Positions 3,098 to 14,112 of a stretch of DNA of 34,381 nt are shown here, one piece after another. A program made the position numbers and the translations under genes. The stretch spans positions 1 to 34,381 of the forward strand of contig JALAIB010000085.1 in the NCBI GenBank assembly GCA_023645945.1, read 5' to 3'. The first letter of the stretch is position 1, and every line of letters begins with the position of its first letter. The notes beneath the pieces are model-generated. The model was not told the DNA's origin and did not search any database. It saw only the letters and a program-made list of their open reading frames with translations. This DNA comes from Diploschistes diacapsis. Its lineage: Eukaryota.

Positions 3098-5644
3098 ATG
3101 CTCTCGTCTGTTCTGAAGAGCACCTACCTACAATACAAAGAGGACACAGATGCTGTAGCCTCATGGCTGGCAACAACCGCGAAAGCGTGCGGCTACGCAG
3201 TTGATCTCTTAGTCAATAGGGACGAGAATAAGACCAAGCCACCTGTTTCCGGCCGGCTCAAAGGTAAAGCACGAAAAGCAGCCCGGGAAGCGGCCAAGGA
3301 TGCTGGCACAACGAACAGCCCCCATGCTCCGAAACCTCCAACCTACACCATAGCCGTCAAAGACTTTGTGAGCTTGGCCGAGTGGATCGTGGGCCGTCCT
3401 AAGCCCTCGGTTCAAGTTCCAGCTCGATTTGTCAGTGCCATCAACCGAGCCATTTCCGTCCGGCAAAGACATGGAAAGGAGCTCTCTGGTAAAGACGAAA
3501 AGTCCGACAAACGCCACAATTTCTTCGTTGGCATACTGGAGCAAGTTCGCGACATTCTACGTCCAACGATGTCTCGTGATGCTGCCGAGCTTTTGGAGGA
3601 AAACGTCGACGCCAAAGCAACGCCACTGAATAGATTTGAAGGTCTGGAGGTTGAGGAGCCGTCGAAGGAGCTCTTACAAGCTCCGAATATCTCCTCAGGG
3701 ACTGGGAAGCAGGCTGTAGAAGAGCATTACGAAGCAGAGCGAGACAGTCGTACTGAGGCTTTTGTTGCCCTGAGACTGATCTTGGAGGATTGTAATAGAT
3801 TCCGAACGACAATCTCCGAGAGCTGGGATGGCTACCATTTAGGGATTTTTGATCTTGTGTCTGTGTCGCTCATGACAAATACTGCTATTGATCTCGCTCG
3901 TCGGCTGGAAGAGGACGCGGCGCCTCTGTTCAACAAATATGGAGGCTCAGAGCAGTTGCTTCAGGAGTACTACCTAGCCACATGCCATGTTTGCGGGGAG
4001 GAAGAATCGGCGAGGGAGCAACCAGATGACGAGATGAACTTCCGCATGTACGATGCTGCCGAAACTTTGTTCGTCCCTACATATATGCTTCTGGAGGCCT
4101 TTATGCGCGTGGTCGAGCCGGGCCACGCGCCCATTATGAAGCCGGGGTACTTCGGAACCTACGATGCCACCAGTGACCGGTCCAGGAAAAATGCCCGAGA
4201 AAAGTTCAAAGAAGACAAAGCAATGCTATGCGGAATCCTGCCGGATTTCTACCTAACTGTTCAGGGGCCGCCGAAGACAATGATTGCCGAAGACGAGCTT
4301 ACCCGAGGCCTGAGAGACGCGTTCCGGACGAAGGAGCTTCCACTATGGTTGATATTCGCAACCCAGGTTTACGTCGACATTCATCATGTTTTGCGAGGGT
4401 ATGTGTCGAATGGTATCAGCGATCTTCAGAAGACTGGGAAGTATCTCTATGATTCTATCGATCAAATTTTCAAGTTCCACGCTTCACTTCGGATCGAAAA
4501 TTGGCCGCGTTCGAATGATCTAGTATTCAAGCAATTACAGGAGGATATCGACAGACTCGTCATGAACGACCCCCTTTTCAAAAGAAAACAAGACATGGGC
4601 TTACCACCACAGTTGGTCGGTGCTCCCCACCAATTGATGTCATCCCATCCCCTCCGCTGCGGCCTGCATGCATACTATCTGAAGATCATGCACCAAGAGA
4701 TCAGCATCGCATTCGTAAACGCCTGGGGCTCGATTATCTACACCTACCAACTCTACAACGCCGTGCGCCAAGAGGAGCTCATCCAGCGCGAATGGCAGGA
4801 CATGGCCATCCTCATGTCGATGCAAGACAGCATCTTCGCCGGCGACAGCCCCTCCACCTTCGACGCCTACCTAAAGTGGTTCTCCCTCAGCATCGGCGTT
4901 TCCGCTACTGTCTTCGCCAAGGACAAGCGCAAGTCCTCCCGGTCCACGGTGGCCGCGTCCAAAACCGGTCCGAGGGGAATGCTCAAGGAACAAGCCCCCG
5001 TGGCCCAGATGTTCAAGAGCCGCTACTGCAGCGACTCGGCGCGCGTCGATCTCACGGAGCAGGATCTGCAAAAGATCGTCTCGAAAGCGGTCTGGAAACA
5101 GGACGCAGAAAGTGCCGTCCTGGCCGAGTTGGGCATTCTCTCCCTCGCCCGAGAATCCAAGGGCGAGGAACCCGTGAACTCTCCGCCGGCCACGGACCCA
5201 GACGCGGCAACAGCGGCCCGGCCCCTCCGCCCCACAGCCGTCCACCTCCTCGAGAGCATGCGCAACACCCTGTCCAGCGAGCGCTTGGAGCTCGACTTCG
5301 ACTACCTCCTGCTGCACCGCATGTGCTGGCGTCTGCTGCGCTCTGTCCAGGAGAAGTGCGATGCGCAGCTGAAGGACATGTTCGGGCCCGGGTACCTGGA
5401 GAGGGAGAGCCAGCTGCCGTTCGTGGTGGGGTATATCTTCATGGGCGCGACGCGGACGAAGAGGCTGGGGGCCATGCTGGTGAAGAAGAAGTCAGACGTT
5501 GTGTCGAGTAAGTTGCTTGAACAAGCGGCGGGGGTGATGGACGGGTATCTGGAGAGTTGTGGTGGGTTTGTGGCGAGGATTATGCGGGAGCTGAGGGGGG
5601 TGGAGATTGTGATTGAGGGCAGTGATGCGCAAGGACGGGGTTGA
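3098..5644 (+). CDS. DUF6604-domain protein (~848 aa, intronless)
   Basis: Long ORF with first ATG at 3098. The N-terminus STYLQYKEDTDAVASWLATTAKACGY, plus INRAISVR, HNFFVGILEQVRDILRP and NRFEGLEVEEPS, matches recalled fungal DUF6604 proteins. Confidence 0.8.
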   Translation: MLSSVLKSTYLQYKEDTDAVASWLATTAKACGYAVDLLVNRDENKTKPPVSGRLKGKARKAAREAAKDAGTTNSPHAPKPPTYTIAVKDFVSLAEWIVGRPKPSVQVPARFVSAINRAISVRQRHGKELSGKDEKSDKRHNFFVGILEQVRDILRPTMSRDAAELLEENVDAKATPLNRFEGLEVEEPSKELLQAPNISSGTGKQAVEEHYEAERDSRTEAFVALRLILEDCNRFRTTISESWDGYHLGIFDLVSVSLMTNTAIDLARRLEEDAAPLFNKYGGSEQLLQEYYLATCHVCGEEESAREQPDDEMNFRMYDAAETLFVPTYMLLEAFMRVVEPGHAPIMKPGYFGTYDATSDRSRKNAREKFKEDKAMLCGILPDFYLTVQGPPKTMIAEDELTRGLRDAFRTKELPLWLIFATQVYVDIHHVLRGYVSNGISDLQKTGKYLYDSIDQIFKFHASLRIENWPRSNDLVFKQLQEDIDRLVMNDPLFKRKQDMGLPPQLVGAPHQLMSSHPLRCGLHAYYLKIMHQEISIAFVNAWGSIIYTYQLYNAVRQEELIQREWQDMAILMSMQDSIFAGDSPSTFDAYLKWFSLSIGVSATVFAKDKRKSSRSTVAASKTGPRGMLKEQAPVAQMFKSRYCSDSARVDLTEQDLQKIVSKAVWKQDAESAVLAELGILSLARESKGEEPVNSPPATDPDAATAARPLRPTAVHLLESMRNTLSSERLELDFDYLLLHRMCWRLLRSVQEKCDAQLKDMFGPGYLERESQLPFVVGYIFMGATRTKRLGAMLVKKKSDVVSSKLLEQAAGVMDGYLESCGGFVARIMRELRGVEIVIEGSDAQGRG

Positions 5645-6817: not shown

Positions 6818-9742
6818 CTACTCCAGCAACCGACTGATATCCCCCATCCTCGCATCCCTGCCCTTCCTCTTGTTCTCCGTTTCTTTAAATGCCGCGAGCA
6901 TCAGCTTCCTCTTCTCCTCCTGGATGCTCAAAACCCTCTCCTCGATGCTCTCCTCCATCACCAGCCTCCAAACCGTGCAGTCCCTCTTTTGGCCTAGCCG
7001 GTGCACCCGGTCCACCGCCTGGTCTTCGATCGCGGGCGCCCACCAGCTGTCCGAGAGCACGACGGTGTTGGCCGCCACTAGGTTGAGCCCGACGGCGCAG
7101 ACGCCCAGCGACGCCAGCATGATGCTCGTGTCCGGGTCCGAGGAGATGGTTGATAGCGCGGCGTCGCGGGCCGCCGCGTTCATGGTGCCGTCGAGCCGCG
7201 TGTACTTGTAGCCGGCCTCGCGCAGGTGCGGCTCGAGCAGTGAGAGGAAGCGCGTCCACTGAGAGAAGACGATAATCTTTGGGTTCGGCTGCTTGTGCGT
7301 GGCCGCGAGGATCGACATGAGGGCCTCGACCTTGCTGCTGCTGGTATCGGGGTCGATGACTTGCTCGGGAAAGTCGCCTGCGTCGGCCTCGCCCAGGCCC
7401 GCGGCGGGCTCGACGAGCTTTGATTCGTCCTCTAGTGGGGCACGGCACATGGGGCACTTTGACTGAGTTTCGATGACGCGGGTGATGCAGGACTTACCGA
7501 AGACGTGCGCGCAGTGAGTTATCACCGGTTCGTGGCCAGTCAGGTCTTCCAGGCAAATGGGGCAGTCCTCGCGCGACTCGATGCTCAGTTGGAGCATGTC
7601 TTGCAGGCCCTTGCGATTCTCTGGCGTGAGCTCGACAGTCGCCTGATGCTCCAGGGCTTCCATAAGCTTAGCCATGCGCTCCGGACAGAGCTGCCAGTGG
7701 TTGCAGATTTGGCGGAGGCGGAGTAGAACTTCGAGAAGGTTATTGTAGGCTTCCTGGGCTCTGCGGCCTCGGCCTGCCTCACTGCGCATTTGATACTCTC
7801 TCAGCATACCCTGAGCCTCGGCTTGAAGGGCAAGGTAGCGCTCTCGCTCGGGCTTGAGGAATTGGATGCGGTGAATGTATTCGTTGATTGCAGGTAGCCG
7901 TAGATCGATAAAAGGCATCTCCTTCTTGCGGCGGAGGCACAGCGTTGTCATAATCGCTTGAAGAAGGACGGTGGCTCTCTCGTTGTAACGTTGCATGGGA
8001 CGCATGAGTACCTGGCTGAAAACATCCAGACGCTCCAAACCTCCGGTGATGCCAATGAAACGAAGGAGTGAGTAGAGGTCTTTGAGGTTGTTGATGATTG
8101 GTGTGCCGGTGAGAGCCCAGCGCGAGCGTGCCATCAGGCTTGTTGCCGCCAAAGCACCTTTTGTACTAGGGTTGCGGATGCTGTGGCCCTCGTCAAGGAC
8201 TACACGGCGCCAGTCGATTGAGAACAGCCCAGAAGGTCTCGGTATTGGAGCAGGCTTCGCGCCCTTCGCTTTGGACTGGGGCATGTACTCAGCAGATAGT
8301 GTTCCTACAACCGTTAGGCAACGCTATAGTAAGGGTTTGAGGAAACGCTTACCATAGGTAGTTATTACCACATCGATCTGGTGCTCTGTAATATATTGAG
8401 AATTAATCTGCTGCTTGTTGGGACCATGGTAGGTGAGGATCTTCAATGGGTATTTTGCATCCACATGTTGAGCAGCCTAAGAAGAGATTAGAGGGTAATA
8501 GAGAATTACTATATGATCTCATACCTGACCGCTCCAGTTACTCATAACGCTCAGAGGCGCGACAATAAGCGTCGCTCTCTGACCACTGCTTTGGATATTA
8601 AATCGCTCCATATCGGCGACAATAAGAGAGATGATCTCGAGAGTCTTGCCTAACCCCATGTCATCCGCAAGGATTCCACCAGAAGCAAGCGTGGGTTCTT
8701 CGTGTTGGATGGAATAATTCGTTGCAATATTCGTGAATACCCGCTTATCGGTCGGCGACCTCTTCCAAAGTTGGACGATGCTGCTGTCGCCTTCAGCTGG
8801 AAGCTTGAGATTCTCCTTGTCGAGCAGCCATGCCAAAGCCTGAAGCTGATACGGAAGCATCTCAGTTGCGATCCTCTTTGGCTGGTCTGCTTTTGGTAAA
8901 TGTTCAAGATCCTTTTCATTGGCACCAAATTTGTCGGAATCTTGCCCTATCTCTCTGGGATTGAAAACCTGACTTCCTGCCATGATATCCGCCATCGTGG
9001 GGCCTTCTTGCGGATTCTGTGCATCAGCAGGACCCAGGCCAGCTTTAAATTGCTGATTGCTAGATCCAGACGCCCCAACATACCATTGGGCGACCTGCGC
9101 TAGTTCTGTCTTTTGACGTCTTTGTTCTTCCTGCTCCTTTCTCTGAAGCAACTGCATGGGTAGTTTGTCCCTTTGCATCATGTCTTTCAGCATTTCTCTC
9201 CCGTATCGCTCACTTGTGCCGTAGAGGCCGAGTTCGATCGGAACATCAAATTCGCCCCGCTCTCCAGCGAGTTGGGCGTCGACAACCAAAAGACCCTGAT
9301 CAAGGTATTTGGCCAATTTGGCTGCAACTTGACGTGGTATGTGACCAACCTGTTGTCGACGCACATTGTCCACCCTGATTGCATTGCGGTCGTAGGGATT
9401 CCTTGGTTCCCTGACGAGGCTAACAAATTCACTCTGCGTCGCGATGCCATTGTAATATCTGATGCCGACTACTTTAGTAGGCAAACTTCCATATTTTTCA
9501 TATGTTTCAAACGCTTGATATGCATTGCCATCGTCCTGCGTAGACATTATCAGCTGGTCAGCTTCGTCATCGTCGAGCTCTAGGTATTCGCCACTATTTA
9601 ACGTCTGGGTAGGCTGCGATGTCTGGCTGTGGTAGCCAGAGTCCTGAGTGAGCCGAGCGGTTTTGCTTGGGCGGGAATCCTCGTCGTCGCTGACCGTGAG
9701 GTCGATGTCCACACGCTCTTTGCCCTGCGGTCTTTTTGCCAT
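6818..9742 (-). CDS. Rad5/HLTF-like SNF2-family DNA translocase with HIRAN and RING domains (~942 aa)
   Basis: Exons 9742-8525, 8476-8353, 8304-6818, with two 48-nt introns. HIRAN: VVGIRYY...REPRNPYDRNAIRV...VGHIP. Walker A region GGILADDMGLGKT. RRVVLDEGH. RING CPIC...CAH...CPMC. HELICc VFSQW...QAVDRVHRLGQ. An alternative in-frame ATG lies at 9811. Confidence 0.93.
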
Positions 9743-9834
9743 TGCGTTGTAAGCGCCAGAGATGCGATGCTGTCGACGTTGTGAGCGTTTCCATGGAAGT
9801 GAACGCCCCATGCTGGTGTTGAGCTGAGGTTGTC

Positions 9835-9910
9835 CTAATAAATAGAAAATAGACAATCTCGGATAGCCGCGGCGGAGATTAGATTAGATTAGATAAGGGG
9901 AAATACTCAC
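9835..9910 (-). other. Predicted 5'-leader intron of the Rad5/HLTF-like gene
   Basis: Minus strand: GTGAGT donor at 9910, tandem CTAAT branch-like repeats, pyrimidine-rich tract, TAG acceptor at 9835; 76 nt. Confidence 0.55.
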
Positions 9911-10935
9911 TGTCGCGACTTCACATGACTTTTCTTGGCAGCATGTTCATTGAGCTTCAGGTAATTCAAATCTCATTCTATTCGTCTTATATAGATGTGA
10001 AAACATCTGGATAGCTTTCTTGACACCCACTCAGCATTTACGATTCTAATTCCTAGCCGCATTGACTGGGCGCCTGGCTGTCAGTTCTGGCCAATTGAGG
10101 AGCACTCAAGAGCACTCTGGAGCCCTTGGATGCTCGGGTCTTTGTATATACTATTTCAATGGCTGGCTTCTAGTGATAGTTAAAGCTCGTCAGTAGGCTT
10201 CAAATGCTATTTTCTATGCTCATAGAAAGTAAGTGAGCCGCATACGTCAAAGCACTTCCAGAATGCTCAATCTAGTAAGGGGTGTTGCTTTCCCCGCACT
10301 CGATTGGTTCTCGACTTAGATACATGTATCTACTATGCTCCCCCCAGTCCGCTCTCTACTCCTTTGTACACAGCTTCAACATCCGAGCTTCTCCTCCCAC
10401 TTTTGCCTAAGCATTTTCGTCGGTTGTCTAAGCTCGTTCATCTACTTTGCTTTTGACTAGGAATTGTGCAGTTAAGGATTGATAGTAGTGCTCGGATAGC
10501 TCATCTGAAGCCCTTCATCGGTACAAATCTCTAGCTACATGTACGACTGAAGTGTCCCACATTCAACGACTGTTGCCCTGAGTTTCGCCTTCTACTAGAT
10601 CTCCTTGTTGGGCCGTAACATCGTTAGTGCATTGAAAAACGTTCTGGTCTGCTGCGGCTCTGCAACGTGGGCGCAAATTCCACCTTTACTCGTTCAAACT
10701 GTCGTCCACGCGATCCCGCCGGTGGACGGTTGTCAACGCTCAGCTGGTCTTTTGCGTGGCATTCCTGTTCGCCCTAGCTTTCCAGTTTCTGTATCAGCCA
10801 GGGCGCTTTTCAATTCCCTTGCCAGTACATCAGCAGCAGCCTCAGCAAGCTACAATTGTACGGAAAGTCAAAGCTCCAGTGTGCCCCAACGAGCACGTTC
10901 TCTTAGAGAGCCAGCCAGTTTCAAGGCCGGAACAG

Positions 10936-12747
10936 ATGACTTTGAGAGAGGCTGCGCAGCGCATAGCTGCCGAGTTTGACTATCCGGCGGCAGATGTCAA
11001 CAGGGGTGTCAGGGAGTTCCTAAAGGAAATGGGTAGGCCAGGTACTGGTGCTCAGGATGCTGCTGCTAACCAAGGCGATACAGATGAGGGCTTGGTTAAA
11101 GTCAATGCTACAATGAGCCAGATTCCAACCTATGTCACAGCCGTTCCCAATGGAAAAGAGAAGGTGATTATGCCGCTTTTGCAGACCGCGATCAATTAAC
11201 GAGTTTAGGGCCTCTATCTCGCCGTCGATCTGGGAGGAACTAATTTTCGAGTCTGTTCTATACGCCTGAACGGAGATACGACTTTCTCCCTGACGCAATC
11301 AAAGGTGGCTATCCCAAGAGAGCTCATGGTAGCGAAGACATCAAAAGAGCTATTTGGTTTCTTGGCAAAGCAAATAGAGCTATTCCTCCAGATGCATCAC
11401 AATAAACATTTCGAAGCTACCATAAAGAGAAGGCAGACAATTAGTCGACCGGAAGGATACAGAGAAGAGGAAACCTTCCAATTGGGATTTACATTTAGCT
11501 TTCCGGTTCAGCAGGTAGGCATCAATAAAGGATATCTCATTCGCTGGACCAAAGGCTTCGACATTAAAGACGCCATTGGTAAAGACGTCTGCGCCCTGCT
11601 GCAAGAAGAATTGAATGCCCTGCAGCTGCCCGTCCGAGTTGCAGCGCTCGTAAACGATACGGTGGGTACGCTAATGGCAAGATCGTACACCTCTCCGAAC
11701 AAGACAAGCACACTGCTAGGCGCGATCTTTGGAACCGGCACAAACGGGGCATACGTTGAGAAATTGGACAAAGTTCAGAAGCTGAGGACAATGGAAGGCG
11801 TAGAAGACTACGACAAGAGCACGGGCGACATGATCGTGAACACAGAGTGGGGCTCGTTCGATAACTCCCTCAAAGTACTACCCAACACTCCTTATGACGA
11901 TACTCTTGATAGAGAAAGCGTCAACCCAGGCGTACAAATGTTCGAGAAGCGAGTATCTGGTATGTTTTTAGGTGAAGTGCTCCGTAGAGCATTGTTGGCT
12001 CTTGTCAAGGATCCAACAGCACAGATCTTCCACGACGAGGACTCGAGCAAGAACGAGTTCCACAGTACCACCACGATTGCCGAGAACTCGGCACTGTACA
12101 AGCAATGGGGCATCGATACCAGCTTTCTCAGCATCGTGCAGGATGACCAATCCCCAACTCTCAAGATCGTGCGGCACGCGCTAGAAAAAGACCTGTCTGT
12201 CGACGCCGCCAGCTTCGAGGACGCCGAGGCAGTGAAGCTCCTCGCCTCCGCGATCGGCAGACGATCTGCACGCCTGAGTGCTGTCGCCATCGGAGCGACC
12301 GTCATCAAGTCCGGCAGGCTTAGGACGGACCCCACGGTTGATGTCGGTGTGGACGGAAGCCTGGTCGAGTATTATCCCGAGTTCGAGGAGCTCATGAGGG
12401 AGGCGCTGCGCGAGATCACGGAGATCGGCGCGGAGGAGAAGAAGATACAGATCGGCATAGCGAAGGATGGTAGTGGCGTGGGTGCGGCGCTCATTGCGTG
12501 GTCTGCCGCCCAGAGGCTTAAGACAAATCAAGAAGGGTTAGTCGGTCCACAGATGGAATTTAGAAGGTCAAATACGCTAACAATACGCAGAAAACCCCCT
12601 GCGCTCTCTTCTAGTTCTCCCAAGCCTCGGCCGCAGCAGCAAAGGAGGGCTTCATTGACGCAGCGTATCCGCCATGCCTACAGGCGGTCGCTAGGAGCAA
12701 TCTTTGGGTCGGGTGGCACGGCAGAGGAACCGAATCCGGGAGACTAA
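10936..12747 (+). CDS. glkA: Glucokinase (hexokinase family, GLK1/GlkA type; ~553 aa from the AUG)
   Basis: Exons 10936-11032, 11084-11163, 11209-12536, 12591-12747 (introns 51, 45, 54 nt). Motifs: LAVDLGGTNFRV, LGFTFSFPV, LIRWTKGF, NDTVGT, IFGTGTNGAY, NTEWGSFD, FEKRVSGMFLGE, DGSGVGAAL. Confidence 0.93.
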
Positions 12748-13171
12748 CCATTAAGGTCACGGCTGGTGATGGTAAGGCCGGTATGGGCCTCTCCACCTTC
12801 TAGCATATTATAGCGTTTGAAAGAGTCAGGCTCTCGCAGGAGATGATGGAGCATCATATGCCATTGTATAGCTGTCACAAAGGAAAGCACTTGTACAAAG
12901 CTGGAAGGAATACATACTATACACACTCGAAGCTATGCGAGACCCTTTCCATAAGCGACAATCTTAAGGTTGATGCGATGCCTGGCACGGTTCTTGTCTC
13001 AAGCTCATGCCAAGCCCTTGTCTATTCTTCATACCCATCCCACCCCGAGCATAGAAGCTACCATCTCCCTCTCCCTCTCCCTCTCCCCCTTCTTCCACTC
13101 TTCGTCACCCTTCTCCTTTCATTTCTTCTCCCTTCTCTCCCTTCTTCCCTCCCCTCAATCTCGATGTCCCC

Positions 13172-14112
13172 CTACCTGTCCTTCCCTTCCACCTCATTCC
13201 AACCAACATCTCCCTTCAAAACCCTCCCCAAAAACACCCCCTCCAATCTCCGCACCTCCGCCCGAAACGCCTCCACCTCCGCCCAGCAATCCAGCGGCCG
13301 CCGATCGTTCGCCCTCAGACACCGAACCAGTCCTTCCTTCGCCCGCGCGACGCCCGCGTCGTTCGCGACGTCTTCTTTTTCCTGCCGCGCCGAGAGCTTT
13401 TGCTGCAGCGCGGAGATGCTGGATTGGACCCGGGCGCGGGAGAGGGTTGTTGGGTCTTTTGCGTTGGTGTTGGAATTGCTAGGGGAGGAGGATGATGGAG
13501 AGGAGGTTGGGGGTTGGGTTTGAGGAGATGAGAGGAAAGAGGGAGGGGAGCGCGGCTGCTGGGAGGCGGGTTTGCTGGGGTCTGGGAAGATGGAGGGGTC
13601 GGAGACTGTGGGCCACTTGGGGGTTTTGGATGGAGGGGAGGGTTGTTTTGAGGCTGTTGGGGTGGAGGAGGGTGTGGACGGGGAGTCGGCGGATATTTGC
13701 TCGGACAGGTCGCGTAGGATTTTGTCCTGTTGTTCGGCGAGGCGCGTGAGCTCAGCGTGTACCCGGTTTTGAATGTGTAGCTCTAGGTCTTTAGCGCGGG
13801 TTGAGTCGGTCTGGGAGAAAGGGAGGATAGAGGGTTAGCGGAGGTCTTGTGAGGGAGTTGGGAGGGTTAGTGAGGAGAAGGGAGAAGGGAGGAGACGGGG
13901 GAGAGTGGAGGGCATAAATGGGACCTACCTCGTTGCTGTTCTGCAGGGCGTCAATCACTTCCTGGGAGAAGCGTACAGGGGTGTCGCTGCGCGGGAGTAA
14001 GCATGTGCAGTGCTGGGAGCTGGGAGCTGGGAGCTGGGAGCTGGGAGCTGGGCTACCTCTTGAAGACATGCTGTGTTTTCGTTTCTGCGGGTTTTGAAGT
14101 ACCTTGGCCCAT
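13172..14112 (-). CDS. MIC19: MICOS complex subunit Mic19 (Aim13 / DUF1690; ~250 aa)
   Basis: Missed by the ORF track. Exons 14112-14057, 13986-13929, 13810-13172. Translation: MGQGTSKP (myristoylation motif), HVFKSDTPVRFSQEVIDALQNSNETDSTRAKDLELHIQNRV, and C-terminal LVRCLRANDRRPLDCWAEVEAFRAEVRRLE (Cx10C). Confidence 0.88.
14012..14052 (+). repeat. Heptamer tandem repeat (GCTGGGA) x~5.9 inside MIC19 intron 1
   Basis: Five perfect GCTGGGA units plus GCTGGG are directly visible. Confidence 0.95.

Follow-up and report, generated by a model that had tools for sequence, protein, structure and literature searches.

A conserved, ATG-free leader of the Diploschistes diacapsis glucokinase gene that may encode a non-AUG-started, membrane-tethered isoform

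Introduction

Fungal glucokinase is a textbook cytosolic enzyme, and in most species the annotated protein begins at the canonical Met. In mammals, the hexokinases HK1 and HK2 are bound to mitochondria through an N-terminal hydrophobic segment, and in yeast ALA1 and GRS1 use leaky initiation at non-AUG codons of the ACG/CUG type to make targeted isoforms. The glucokinase gene of the fungus Diploschistes diacapsis, which lies on contig JALAIB010000085.1 of GenBank assembly GCA_023645945.1 (positions 1 to 34,381, the whole of which is called the window hereafter), raises the question of whether a fungal glucokinase is also made in a membrane-tethered form, that is, whether the leader in front of its ATG is read as protein. 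An earlier note on this DNA had proposed that the leader hides a non-AUG N-terminal extension which gene finders would miss and which would make a membrane-anchored or organelle-targeted isoform. Comparison with the leaders of related fungi leads to the reading that the leader in D. diacapsis encodes a translated, non-AUG-started, membrane-tethered isoform, to which a probability of roughly 0.7 is given from sequence comparison; it is very probable that in the lineage the extension is a true coding sequence.

The gene itself, judged from its domains and its relatives, is a fungal glucokinase of the hexokinase family. A Pfam search found Hexokinase_1 (PF00349, 5.5e-58) and Hexokinase_2 (PF03727, 4.9e-78) in the main exon, and in a search with the kinase exon the nearest relative was 89% identical, while the nearest named proteins, from Lecanoromycetes and other Pezizomycotina, were 64-74% identical and annotated as glucokinase.

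The open, ATG-free leader in the window

Everything that had been described in the sequence of the window was confirmed. The glucokinase frame is open for 100 codons upstream of the ATG at 10936 (10636-10935), back to a TGA at 10633-10635, and the stretch without an ATG in any frame, given as about 390 nucleotides (nt), measures 397 nt, the previous ATG lying at 10539; only one ATG-free gap in the 34 kb window is longer. Two near-cognate codons, ACG 10639 and CTG 10699, are present as described, both with A at -3 and T at +4. The basic stretch indeed holds 5 Arg and 2 Lys, with the first acidic residue at position 85 counted from the ACG, and the hydrophobic stretch that follows reaches a best 19-residue Kyte-Doolittle mean of 2.18. 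The ATG at 10539, from which this stretch is counted, begins a putative upstream open reading frame (uORF) of three codons (10539-10550, ATG TAC GAC TGA).

Such a leader might also be an ordinary long 5' untranslated region (5'UTR), the frame of which is open by chance or composition and which is ATG-free merely because upstream ATGs are selected against. This explanation is judged very improbable, and it draws what strength it has from the window. Among 5000 dinucleotide-preserving shuffles of the 300-nt leader, the frame was open in 9.7%, the leader was ATG-free in 14.6% and both were true in 1.3%, an estimate that is conservative because the shuffles retain the low stop and ATG content of the region itself. 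In addition, a second forward frame, which had been overlooked earlier, is also open (10599-10979, 126 codons), so that openness of the frame alone is weak evidence for coding, and a Pfam search of the extension matched no family. Taken alone, the features of the window are only modestly unusual, and the case rests on the comparison between species.

Conservation of the frame among related loci

For this comparison, JGI metagenome contigs were scanned with a kinase-domain alignment, which gave 80 loci. With a profile of exon 1, this exon was located 5' of the kinase exon in the window and in 62 of the loci; the 18 loci without an exon-1 match were mostly hexokinase paralogs (37-46% identity) or cut contigs. 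Met stood at profile position 1 in 54 of the 63 cases, 50 of which were unique. The nine loci with Met off this position (L031, L032, L045, L046 and L054-L058) were left out; their in-frame open runs were 68, 57, 153, 45, 33, 60, 102, 28 and 5 codons, respectively. With duplicates and loci having too little upstream sequence removed, frames were counted in 42 unique loci with at least 450 nt upstream, 41 from the metagenomes and the window.

Upstream of the canonical ATG, the open run has a median of 137.5 codons in the glucokinase frame, as against 43.5 in the +1 and 27 in the +2 frame. These loci are phylogenetically related, so that this and the following counts are of non-independent events. 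A run of at least 90 codons was found in the glucokinase frame of 35 of the 42 loci versus 2 (+1) and 5 (+2), the window being one of the five with an open +2 frame, and a run of at least 50 codons in all 42 loci versus 18 (+1) and 14 (+2).

Seven of the 42 loci have in-frame runs of merely 53-61 codons. When two more short-run loci are added to these seven, eight of the nine carry the first half of the hydrophobic segment in an upstream exon-like piece, which lies in another frame or just past a stop. Four of them, the Leotiomycete-like L034, L042, L049 and L051, show a short intron within the hydrophobic segment, together with its branch-point and acceptor motifs; that of L049 (about 3515-3567, 58 nt as counted by eye) contains several ATGs, and the frame is restored only after splicing. 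A frame-preserving spliceosomal intron in this region is hard to square with plain leader sequence.

Selection on the extension

Selection was examined in 46 pairs of loci among the relatives, using the ratio of nonsynonymous to synonymous substitution rates (dN/dS, NG86) over the last 100 codons of the extension. The ratio was at most 0.42 in all 38 pairs for which it was defined, and the main kinase exon of the same pairs gave 0.03-0.15. Examples are 0.02 for L016/L064, 0.17 for L004/L038, 0.24 for L010/L026, 0.26 for L011/L020 and 0.32 for L007/L008. Four pairs are free of gaps, so that the choice of alignment plays no part in them; their differences number 56 at codon position 1, 35 at position 2 and 104 at position 3 (chi-square P = 4e-9), and their dN/dS is 0.17-0.32 in the glucokinase frame versus 0.69-4.73 in the other two frames. 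This substitution pattern indicates that the leader is under purifying selection in the glucokinase frame only. In the comparison of leaders that had been recommended as a check of the extension, the open frame and the hydrophobic helix are conserved and dN/dS is below 1.

ATGs are depleted as well. Counted over the three frames, 23 ATGs occur in the 300 nt ahead of the canonical ATG in 43 unique loci, where shuffles predict 83.7, and several of these 23 fall within the Leotiomycete-like intron; 31 of the 43 loci have no ATG at all in these 300 nt. For every 300 nt, these loci have 6.28 ATGs in the sequence farther 5' and 3.72 in the main exon. A strong depletion that affects every frame is sensible only if ribosomes must scan the whole leader, and an open, selected frame is sensible only if some ribosomes translate it.

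The explanation of the leader as an ordinary 5'UTR is contradicted by the excess of loci that are open in the glucokinase frame and by the purifying selection and third-position bias specific to that frame. Furthermore, it does not account for a hydrophobic helix and a linker motif kept across fungal classes or for the frame-restoring intron of some lineages.

The extension in proteins of relatives

All 13 NCBI-named models examined begin at the canonical Met. Among the open reading frames (ORFs) of relatives, however, eight that are intron-less (P0014, P0022, P0040, P0049, P0058, P0059, P0088 and P0099) extend 85-150 residues 5' of this Met, and each of them has a hydrophobic segment and, just before the internal Met, a Cys motif, both recognisably like those of the window. 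Parmeliaceae glucokinases that lack the extension in their NCBI models are 87-92% identical to three of the eight. Removal of the region as a 5'UTR intron, which had been named as an outcome that would speak against the extension, is unlikely since in these intron-less ORFs the extension is joined to exon 1. ORF callers print M for GTG and TTG starts. The initial M of P0022 and P0040 was considered as a real AUG and rejected, since locus L001, which is nearly identical, carries GTG there and its open frame contains no ATG.

A phmmer search with the extension plus exon 1 against 1.84 billion representative proteins gave 56 matches, of which 53 were aligned upstream of the canonical Met and 26 from query residue 40 or earlier, spanning the hydrophobic segment. 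These matches were mostly short contig ORFs that comprise the extension and exon 1 and run on into intron 1; such a sample is biased because short exon-1-only ORFs are seldom called as genes, and genomic loci were therefore sampled as described above. When the extension plus exon 1 was compared with longer proteins by a word-indexed protein search, none was found at E <= 0.01, and the same search of longer proteins with a profile gave 38 matches.

Long models with an AUG start are also present in NCBI and UniProt, among them those of Zymoseptoria tritici (694 amino acids, aa), Alternaria spp. (630 aa), Phaeosphaeriaceae (GLK1, 642 aa) and Meristemomyces frigidus (684 and 715 aa). These Dothideomycete models have the same architecture, that is, an N-terminal segment, a hydrophobic helix, a Cys linker and an internal Met which is the canonical start elsewhere, but they start at an upstream ATG and hence were found by gene finders, whereas the window and most other loci are ATG-free. 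The proposal of a hidden membrane extension has strong support from the comparison as far as an AUG-free extension with a membrane segment is concerned, but not in the sense that gene finders miss it everywhere. A search of full-text literature gave no paper that deals with either a membrane segment or a non-AUG extension in fungal glucokinase, and none discussing the annotated long forms of Dothideomycetes. The protein architecture is thus already in databases and is undiscussed in the literature found, and non-AUG N-terminal extensions are a known class.

The start site

The sequence upstream of the helix was searched for near-cognate codons in frame that have G at +4 and a purine at -3, which in most loci gave one match. 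A set of 24 start sites resulted, about 19 from this filter and five added by eye. The site codon is CTG in 18 and TTG in 6 of the 24, with no other Leu codon, G is found at +4 in 22, C at +5 in 23 and a purine at -3 in 21, but the -3 and +4 counts and partly the CTG/TTG counts are circular, being filter inputs for about 19 of the sites. Independent of the filter are the codon choice in comparison with other Leu columns, the jump in conservation, the stops upstream and the alternation with real or called starts.

As to the first, CTG and TTG make up 59 of 119 codons in five conserved Leu columns of the same genes. The second is seen when the alignment is anchored on the protein motif: column conservation is 0.26 at -15 to -3, 0.79 at -2/-1 and 0.60 over the next 16 residues (21 rows, in which P0049 is mis-anchored; L003 and P0132 failed to match the pattern). 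The motif, which lies 16-55 residues before the helix, is Leu-Ala in every clade; in Lecanoromycete-like loci Ala-Ala stands in front of it, in Dothideomycete-like and Eurotiomycete-like loci Lys or Thr. Thirdly, four of the 24 loci, including the window, have an in-frame stop 5-9 codons before the site and no ATG after the stop. Finally, in seven Pleosporales-like loci an ATG stands in frame 29-49 residues ahead of the helix, P0126 starts at the residue corresponding to the site, and by-eye comparison places the start of P0099 at the site and that of the Meristemomyces frigidus NCBI model P0182 within one residue of it.

These data bear on another explanation, according to which the extension is coding but is started by an ordinary AUG in an unrecognised upstream exon, or in an alternative transcript spliced into the leader, and no non-AUG start is needed. 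Long forms starting at an AUG do exist, in the seven Pleosporales-like loci and in the NCBI models of Zymoseptoria, Alternaria and others, introns occur in this region in the Leotiomycete-like extensions, and the window has ATGs upstream of 10539. Against this, 17 of the 24 loci have no ATG in any frame from the CTG/TTG site to the canonical ATG, the four closed by a stop have it within 10 codons upstream, and conservation begins exactly at the site, which is unexpected for an internal residue of a longer protein; P0049 and P0058 continue in frame far 5' of the site, where their sequence shows no conservation. Moreover, there is no AG dinucleotide in the window from 10636 to about 10740, and an acceptor there would remove the conserved basic segment. 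An AUG supplied by another exon is thus considered unlikely.

The counterpart of the conserved CTG/TTG-GC site in the window is CTG 10660. The residues around it are A-A-A-L-Q, and A-A-L matches the Lecanoromycete-like motif at which conservation begins. The starts suggested by the earlier note were ACG 10639 and CTG 10699; neither is the homologous codon. The position of CTG 10699 is not consistently near-cognate in relatives. ACG 10639, with A at -3 and directly after the stop, is kept as a possible start. By-eye correspondence shows AAA ACG T in the N-terminal segment of the Leotiomycete-like locus L006 where L009 has AAG CTG T.

It may also be supposed that the lineage once made the long isoform and that the window holds a recently disabled relic, in which the start is weakened and the leader is a 5'UTR not yet carrying stops. 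At CTG 10660, position -3 is G, but position +4 is C and not the G of 22 of the 24 sites; an in-frame stop lies 8 codons before this codon; the N-terminal segment that it would begin has 22 residues, about 20 below the median of 42; and the closest ORF match, P0121, starts only within the hydrophobic segment, a start that may be a gene-caller artefact or reflect an intron. On the other hand, all 100 codons are intact, the hydrophobic segment, Q-F-L, the near-invariant Cys and P-V-S-R-P are retained, the leader is still ATG-free in all frames, and other near-cognate codons with A at -3 are present (ACG 10639 and CTG 10699). A relic is accordingly regarded as improbable, about as much so as the AUG from another exon. 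The base at +4, the near stop and the short segment nevertheless tell against a functional CTG start in D. diacapsis, and so does the folding of the RNA 3' of the candidate starts, which is no better than that of shuffles (z = -0.31; 71 of 200 shuffles fold at least equally well). Structure-assisted initiation was dropped on this ground.

Architecture of the long isoform and its destination

In all 31 loci with a start site set, the best 19-residue Kyte-Doolittle mean of the extension is 2.07-2.96. The N-terminal segment of these loci is 16-55 residues long (median 42), with a median net charge of +5 and 2 acidic residues, and about 45% of it is Ser, Thr, Arg or Ala. The linker between the helix and the canonical Met is about 41-71 residues long. 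Its Cys, which stands about 18 residues before Met and corresponds to 10882-10884 in the window, is found in at least 90% of 34 aligned extensions from several fungal classes.

Among relatives having a full-length long ORF, P0014 is the closest, its kinase exon being 77% identical, and it was modelled with AlphaFold2 from an alignment of 36 sequences. In the model, residues 50-67, which are homologous to the hydrophobic segment of the window, form a helix (block pLDDT 73-80) between disordered regions (1-48 and 69-103, the latter with pLDDT below 50), and a second helix starts a few residues before the internal Met and continues into the kinase fold. The conserved linker motif is not packed on the kinase in this model of P0014, which gives no structural hint to the role of the Cys. 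In the predicted layout, an ordinary glucokinase is preceded by a basic segment, one putative membrane helix and a flexible linker, in this order.

The proposed mechanism is leaky scanning. A minority of scanning ribosomes would start at a near-cognate codon of the leader, most likely CTG 10660 or alternatively ACG 10639, and would read on into the kinase domain, giving a minor long isoform with the basic segment, the helix and the linker. Most ribosomes would bypass this weak start and, because the leader has no ATG in any frame, would reach ATG 10936 and make the cytosolic enzyme. One mRNA could in this way give both a soluble and a membrane-tethered glucokinase.

By analogy with the plant and animal hexokinases, mitochondria are favoured as the destination with roughly even odds. 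They are the best guess because a hydrophobic segment comes after an N-terminal segment which is basic, has many Ser, Thr, Arg and Ala and has few acidic residues; in composition this resembles the bipartite-presequence arrangement that had been proposed earlier. The helix is hydrophobic enough that it may instead be an anchor of the endoplasmic reticulum (ER) type. A positive-inside comparison found the N flank of the helix more positive in 23 of 31 loci, and with this bias an ER anchor would put the kinase in the lumen, an odd place, which is a difficulty for a tethered kinase of that type. A wider proposal, which is tentative and has the odds somewhat against it, is that an ancient CUG/UUG-started glucokinase at or inside mitochondria is made across filamentous ascomycetes by leaky scanning from the same mRNA as the cytosolic enzyme, placed there by its basic segment and transmembrane helix, with the nearly invariant Cys serving import, lipid attachment or redox control. 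If true, it would be the fungal counterpart of the mitochondria-bound hexokinases of plants and animals.

Comparison with known systems

The anchors of plant and mammalian hexokinases lie at the extreme N-terminus, have an AUG start and belong to separate genes or fixed isoforms. The helix of the glucokinase extension, instead, follows a basic segment of 16-55 residues and precedes a linker of about 41-71 residues, and it is proposed to come from the same mRNA as the soluble form. The likeness to mammalian HK1 and HK2 and to plant type B hexokinases (for Physcomitrella, PMC3045890) is one of layout, namely an N-terminal hydrophobic segment that holds the enzyme at a membrane ahead of an ordinary kinase domain.

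Non-AUG N-terminal extensions of cpc-1 are conserved in Pezizomycotina (Ivanov et al. 2017, mBio, PMC5487733). The leader of cpc-1 is open in frame across Pezizomycotina with no AUG able to start the extension, amino-acid conservation of the extension is found in the main frame only, and conservation of the near-cognate codons is deep, A standing at -3 and G at +4. Glucokinase is alike in the first two points, and the pattern of start sites in its relatives resembles the third. Unlike glucokinase, cpc-1 is a transcription factor with regulatory uORFs in the leader and an extension without a membrane segment, and its initiation was shown in vitro and supported in vivo, whereas that of glucokinase is predicted from sequence.

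In Ustilago maydis, a non-AUG start of 6-phosphogluconate dehydrogenase leads to a peroxisomal isoform (Kremp et al. 2020, PMC7214817). The likeness includes a sugar-metabolising enzyme, a targeting signal in the annotated 5'UTR with no AUG upstream of it, conservation of the signal in related fungi and dual localisation from one gene, as is proposed here. The differences are that the Ustilago signal is a peroxisomal targeting signal, PTS2, with a tandem AGG AUU start, while glucokinase has a predicted transmembrane helix and likely CUG/UUG, and that Ustilago is a basidiomycete in which the case was proven with reporters (PMC7214817).

Should the long form be made, current proteomes would be missing a membrane-tethered hexose kinase of filamentous fungi, and glucose phosphorylation, perhaps also sensing, would gain a spatial component as in plants and animals. 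In that case, glucokinase would stand beside cpc-1 among the most deeply conserved near-cognate initiations of fungi and would offer a clean system for the study of leaky scanning. Further cases could be sought by the rule of an in-frame open, ATG-free leader with a conserved CTG/TTG-GC.

Features of the window

The features of the glucokinase gene are collected in Table 1. The residues of exon 1 align one by one with the N-termini annotated in named relatives.

Table 1. Coordinates of the leader and of the exons and introns of the glucokinase gene in the window (aligned or predicted from sequence).
Feature	Position	Strand	Remark
TGA in frame, 5' limit of the extension frame	10633..10635	+	8 codons before CTG 10660
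Extension frame, 100 open codons	10636..10935	+	continuous with ATG 10936
ACG near-cognate codon, context AAA ACG T	10639..10641	+	possible alternative start; directly after the stop
CTG near-cognate codon, context GCG GCT CTG CAA	10660..10662	+	proposed start of the long isoform
Basic N-terminal segment, 22 residues, net charge +7, no acidic residue	10660..10725	+	
CTG near-cognate codon, context TTC AAA CTG T	10699..10701	+	
Hydrophobic, transmembrane-like segment with the conserved Q-F-L motif at its end	10726..10794	+	Kyte-Doolittle 2.18
Linker of about 47 residues with the conserved Cys motif and P-V-S-R-P immediately before the canonical Met	10795..10935	+	
Canonical ATG and exon 1, start of the short isoform	10936..11032	+	Met aligns with 13 of 13 NCBI-named starts
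End of exon 1	GT at 11033	+	inferred from GT and homologs
Exon 2	11084..11163	+	inferred, compared with intron-less relatives
Introns	11033-11083 and 11164-11208	+	inferred
Main exon(s), both hexokinase domains	11209..12747	+	stop 12745-12747

Within the main exon, positions 12537-12590 form a putative in-frame intron of 54 nt with GTTAGT, then CTAAC, then CAG. Whether this piece is spliced or not, the frame reaches the stop and adds a Ser/Pro/Arg-rich tail of about 50 residues, which is not seen in the called ORFs of the closest relatives, P0002 and P0003, whose identity is 86-89%.

On the minus strand, a divergent RAD5/HLTF-like neighbour with HIRAN, SNF2, RING and Helicase_C domains lies at 6818-9883 in two large open pieces. 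It is separated by about 1.1 kb from the glucokinase ATG, so that the promoter region may be common to both genes. In addition, a long pyrimidine-rich tract with repeated CTCTCC is found 3' of the glucokinase gene at 13040-13180, where the GC skew is about -0.55 to -0.71.

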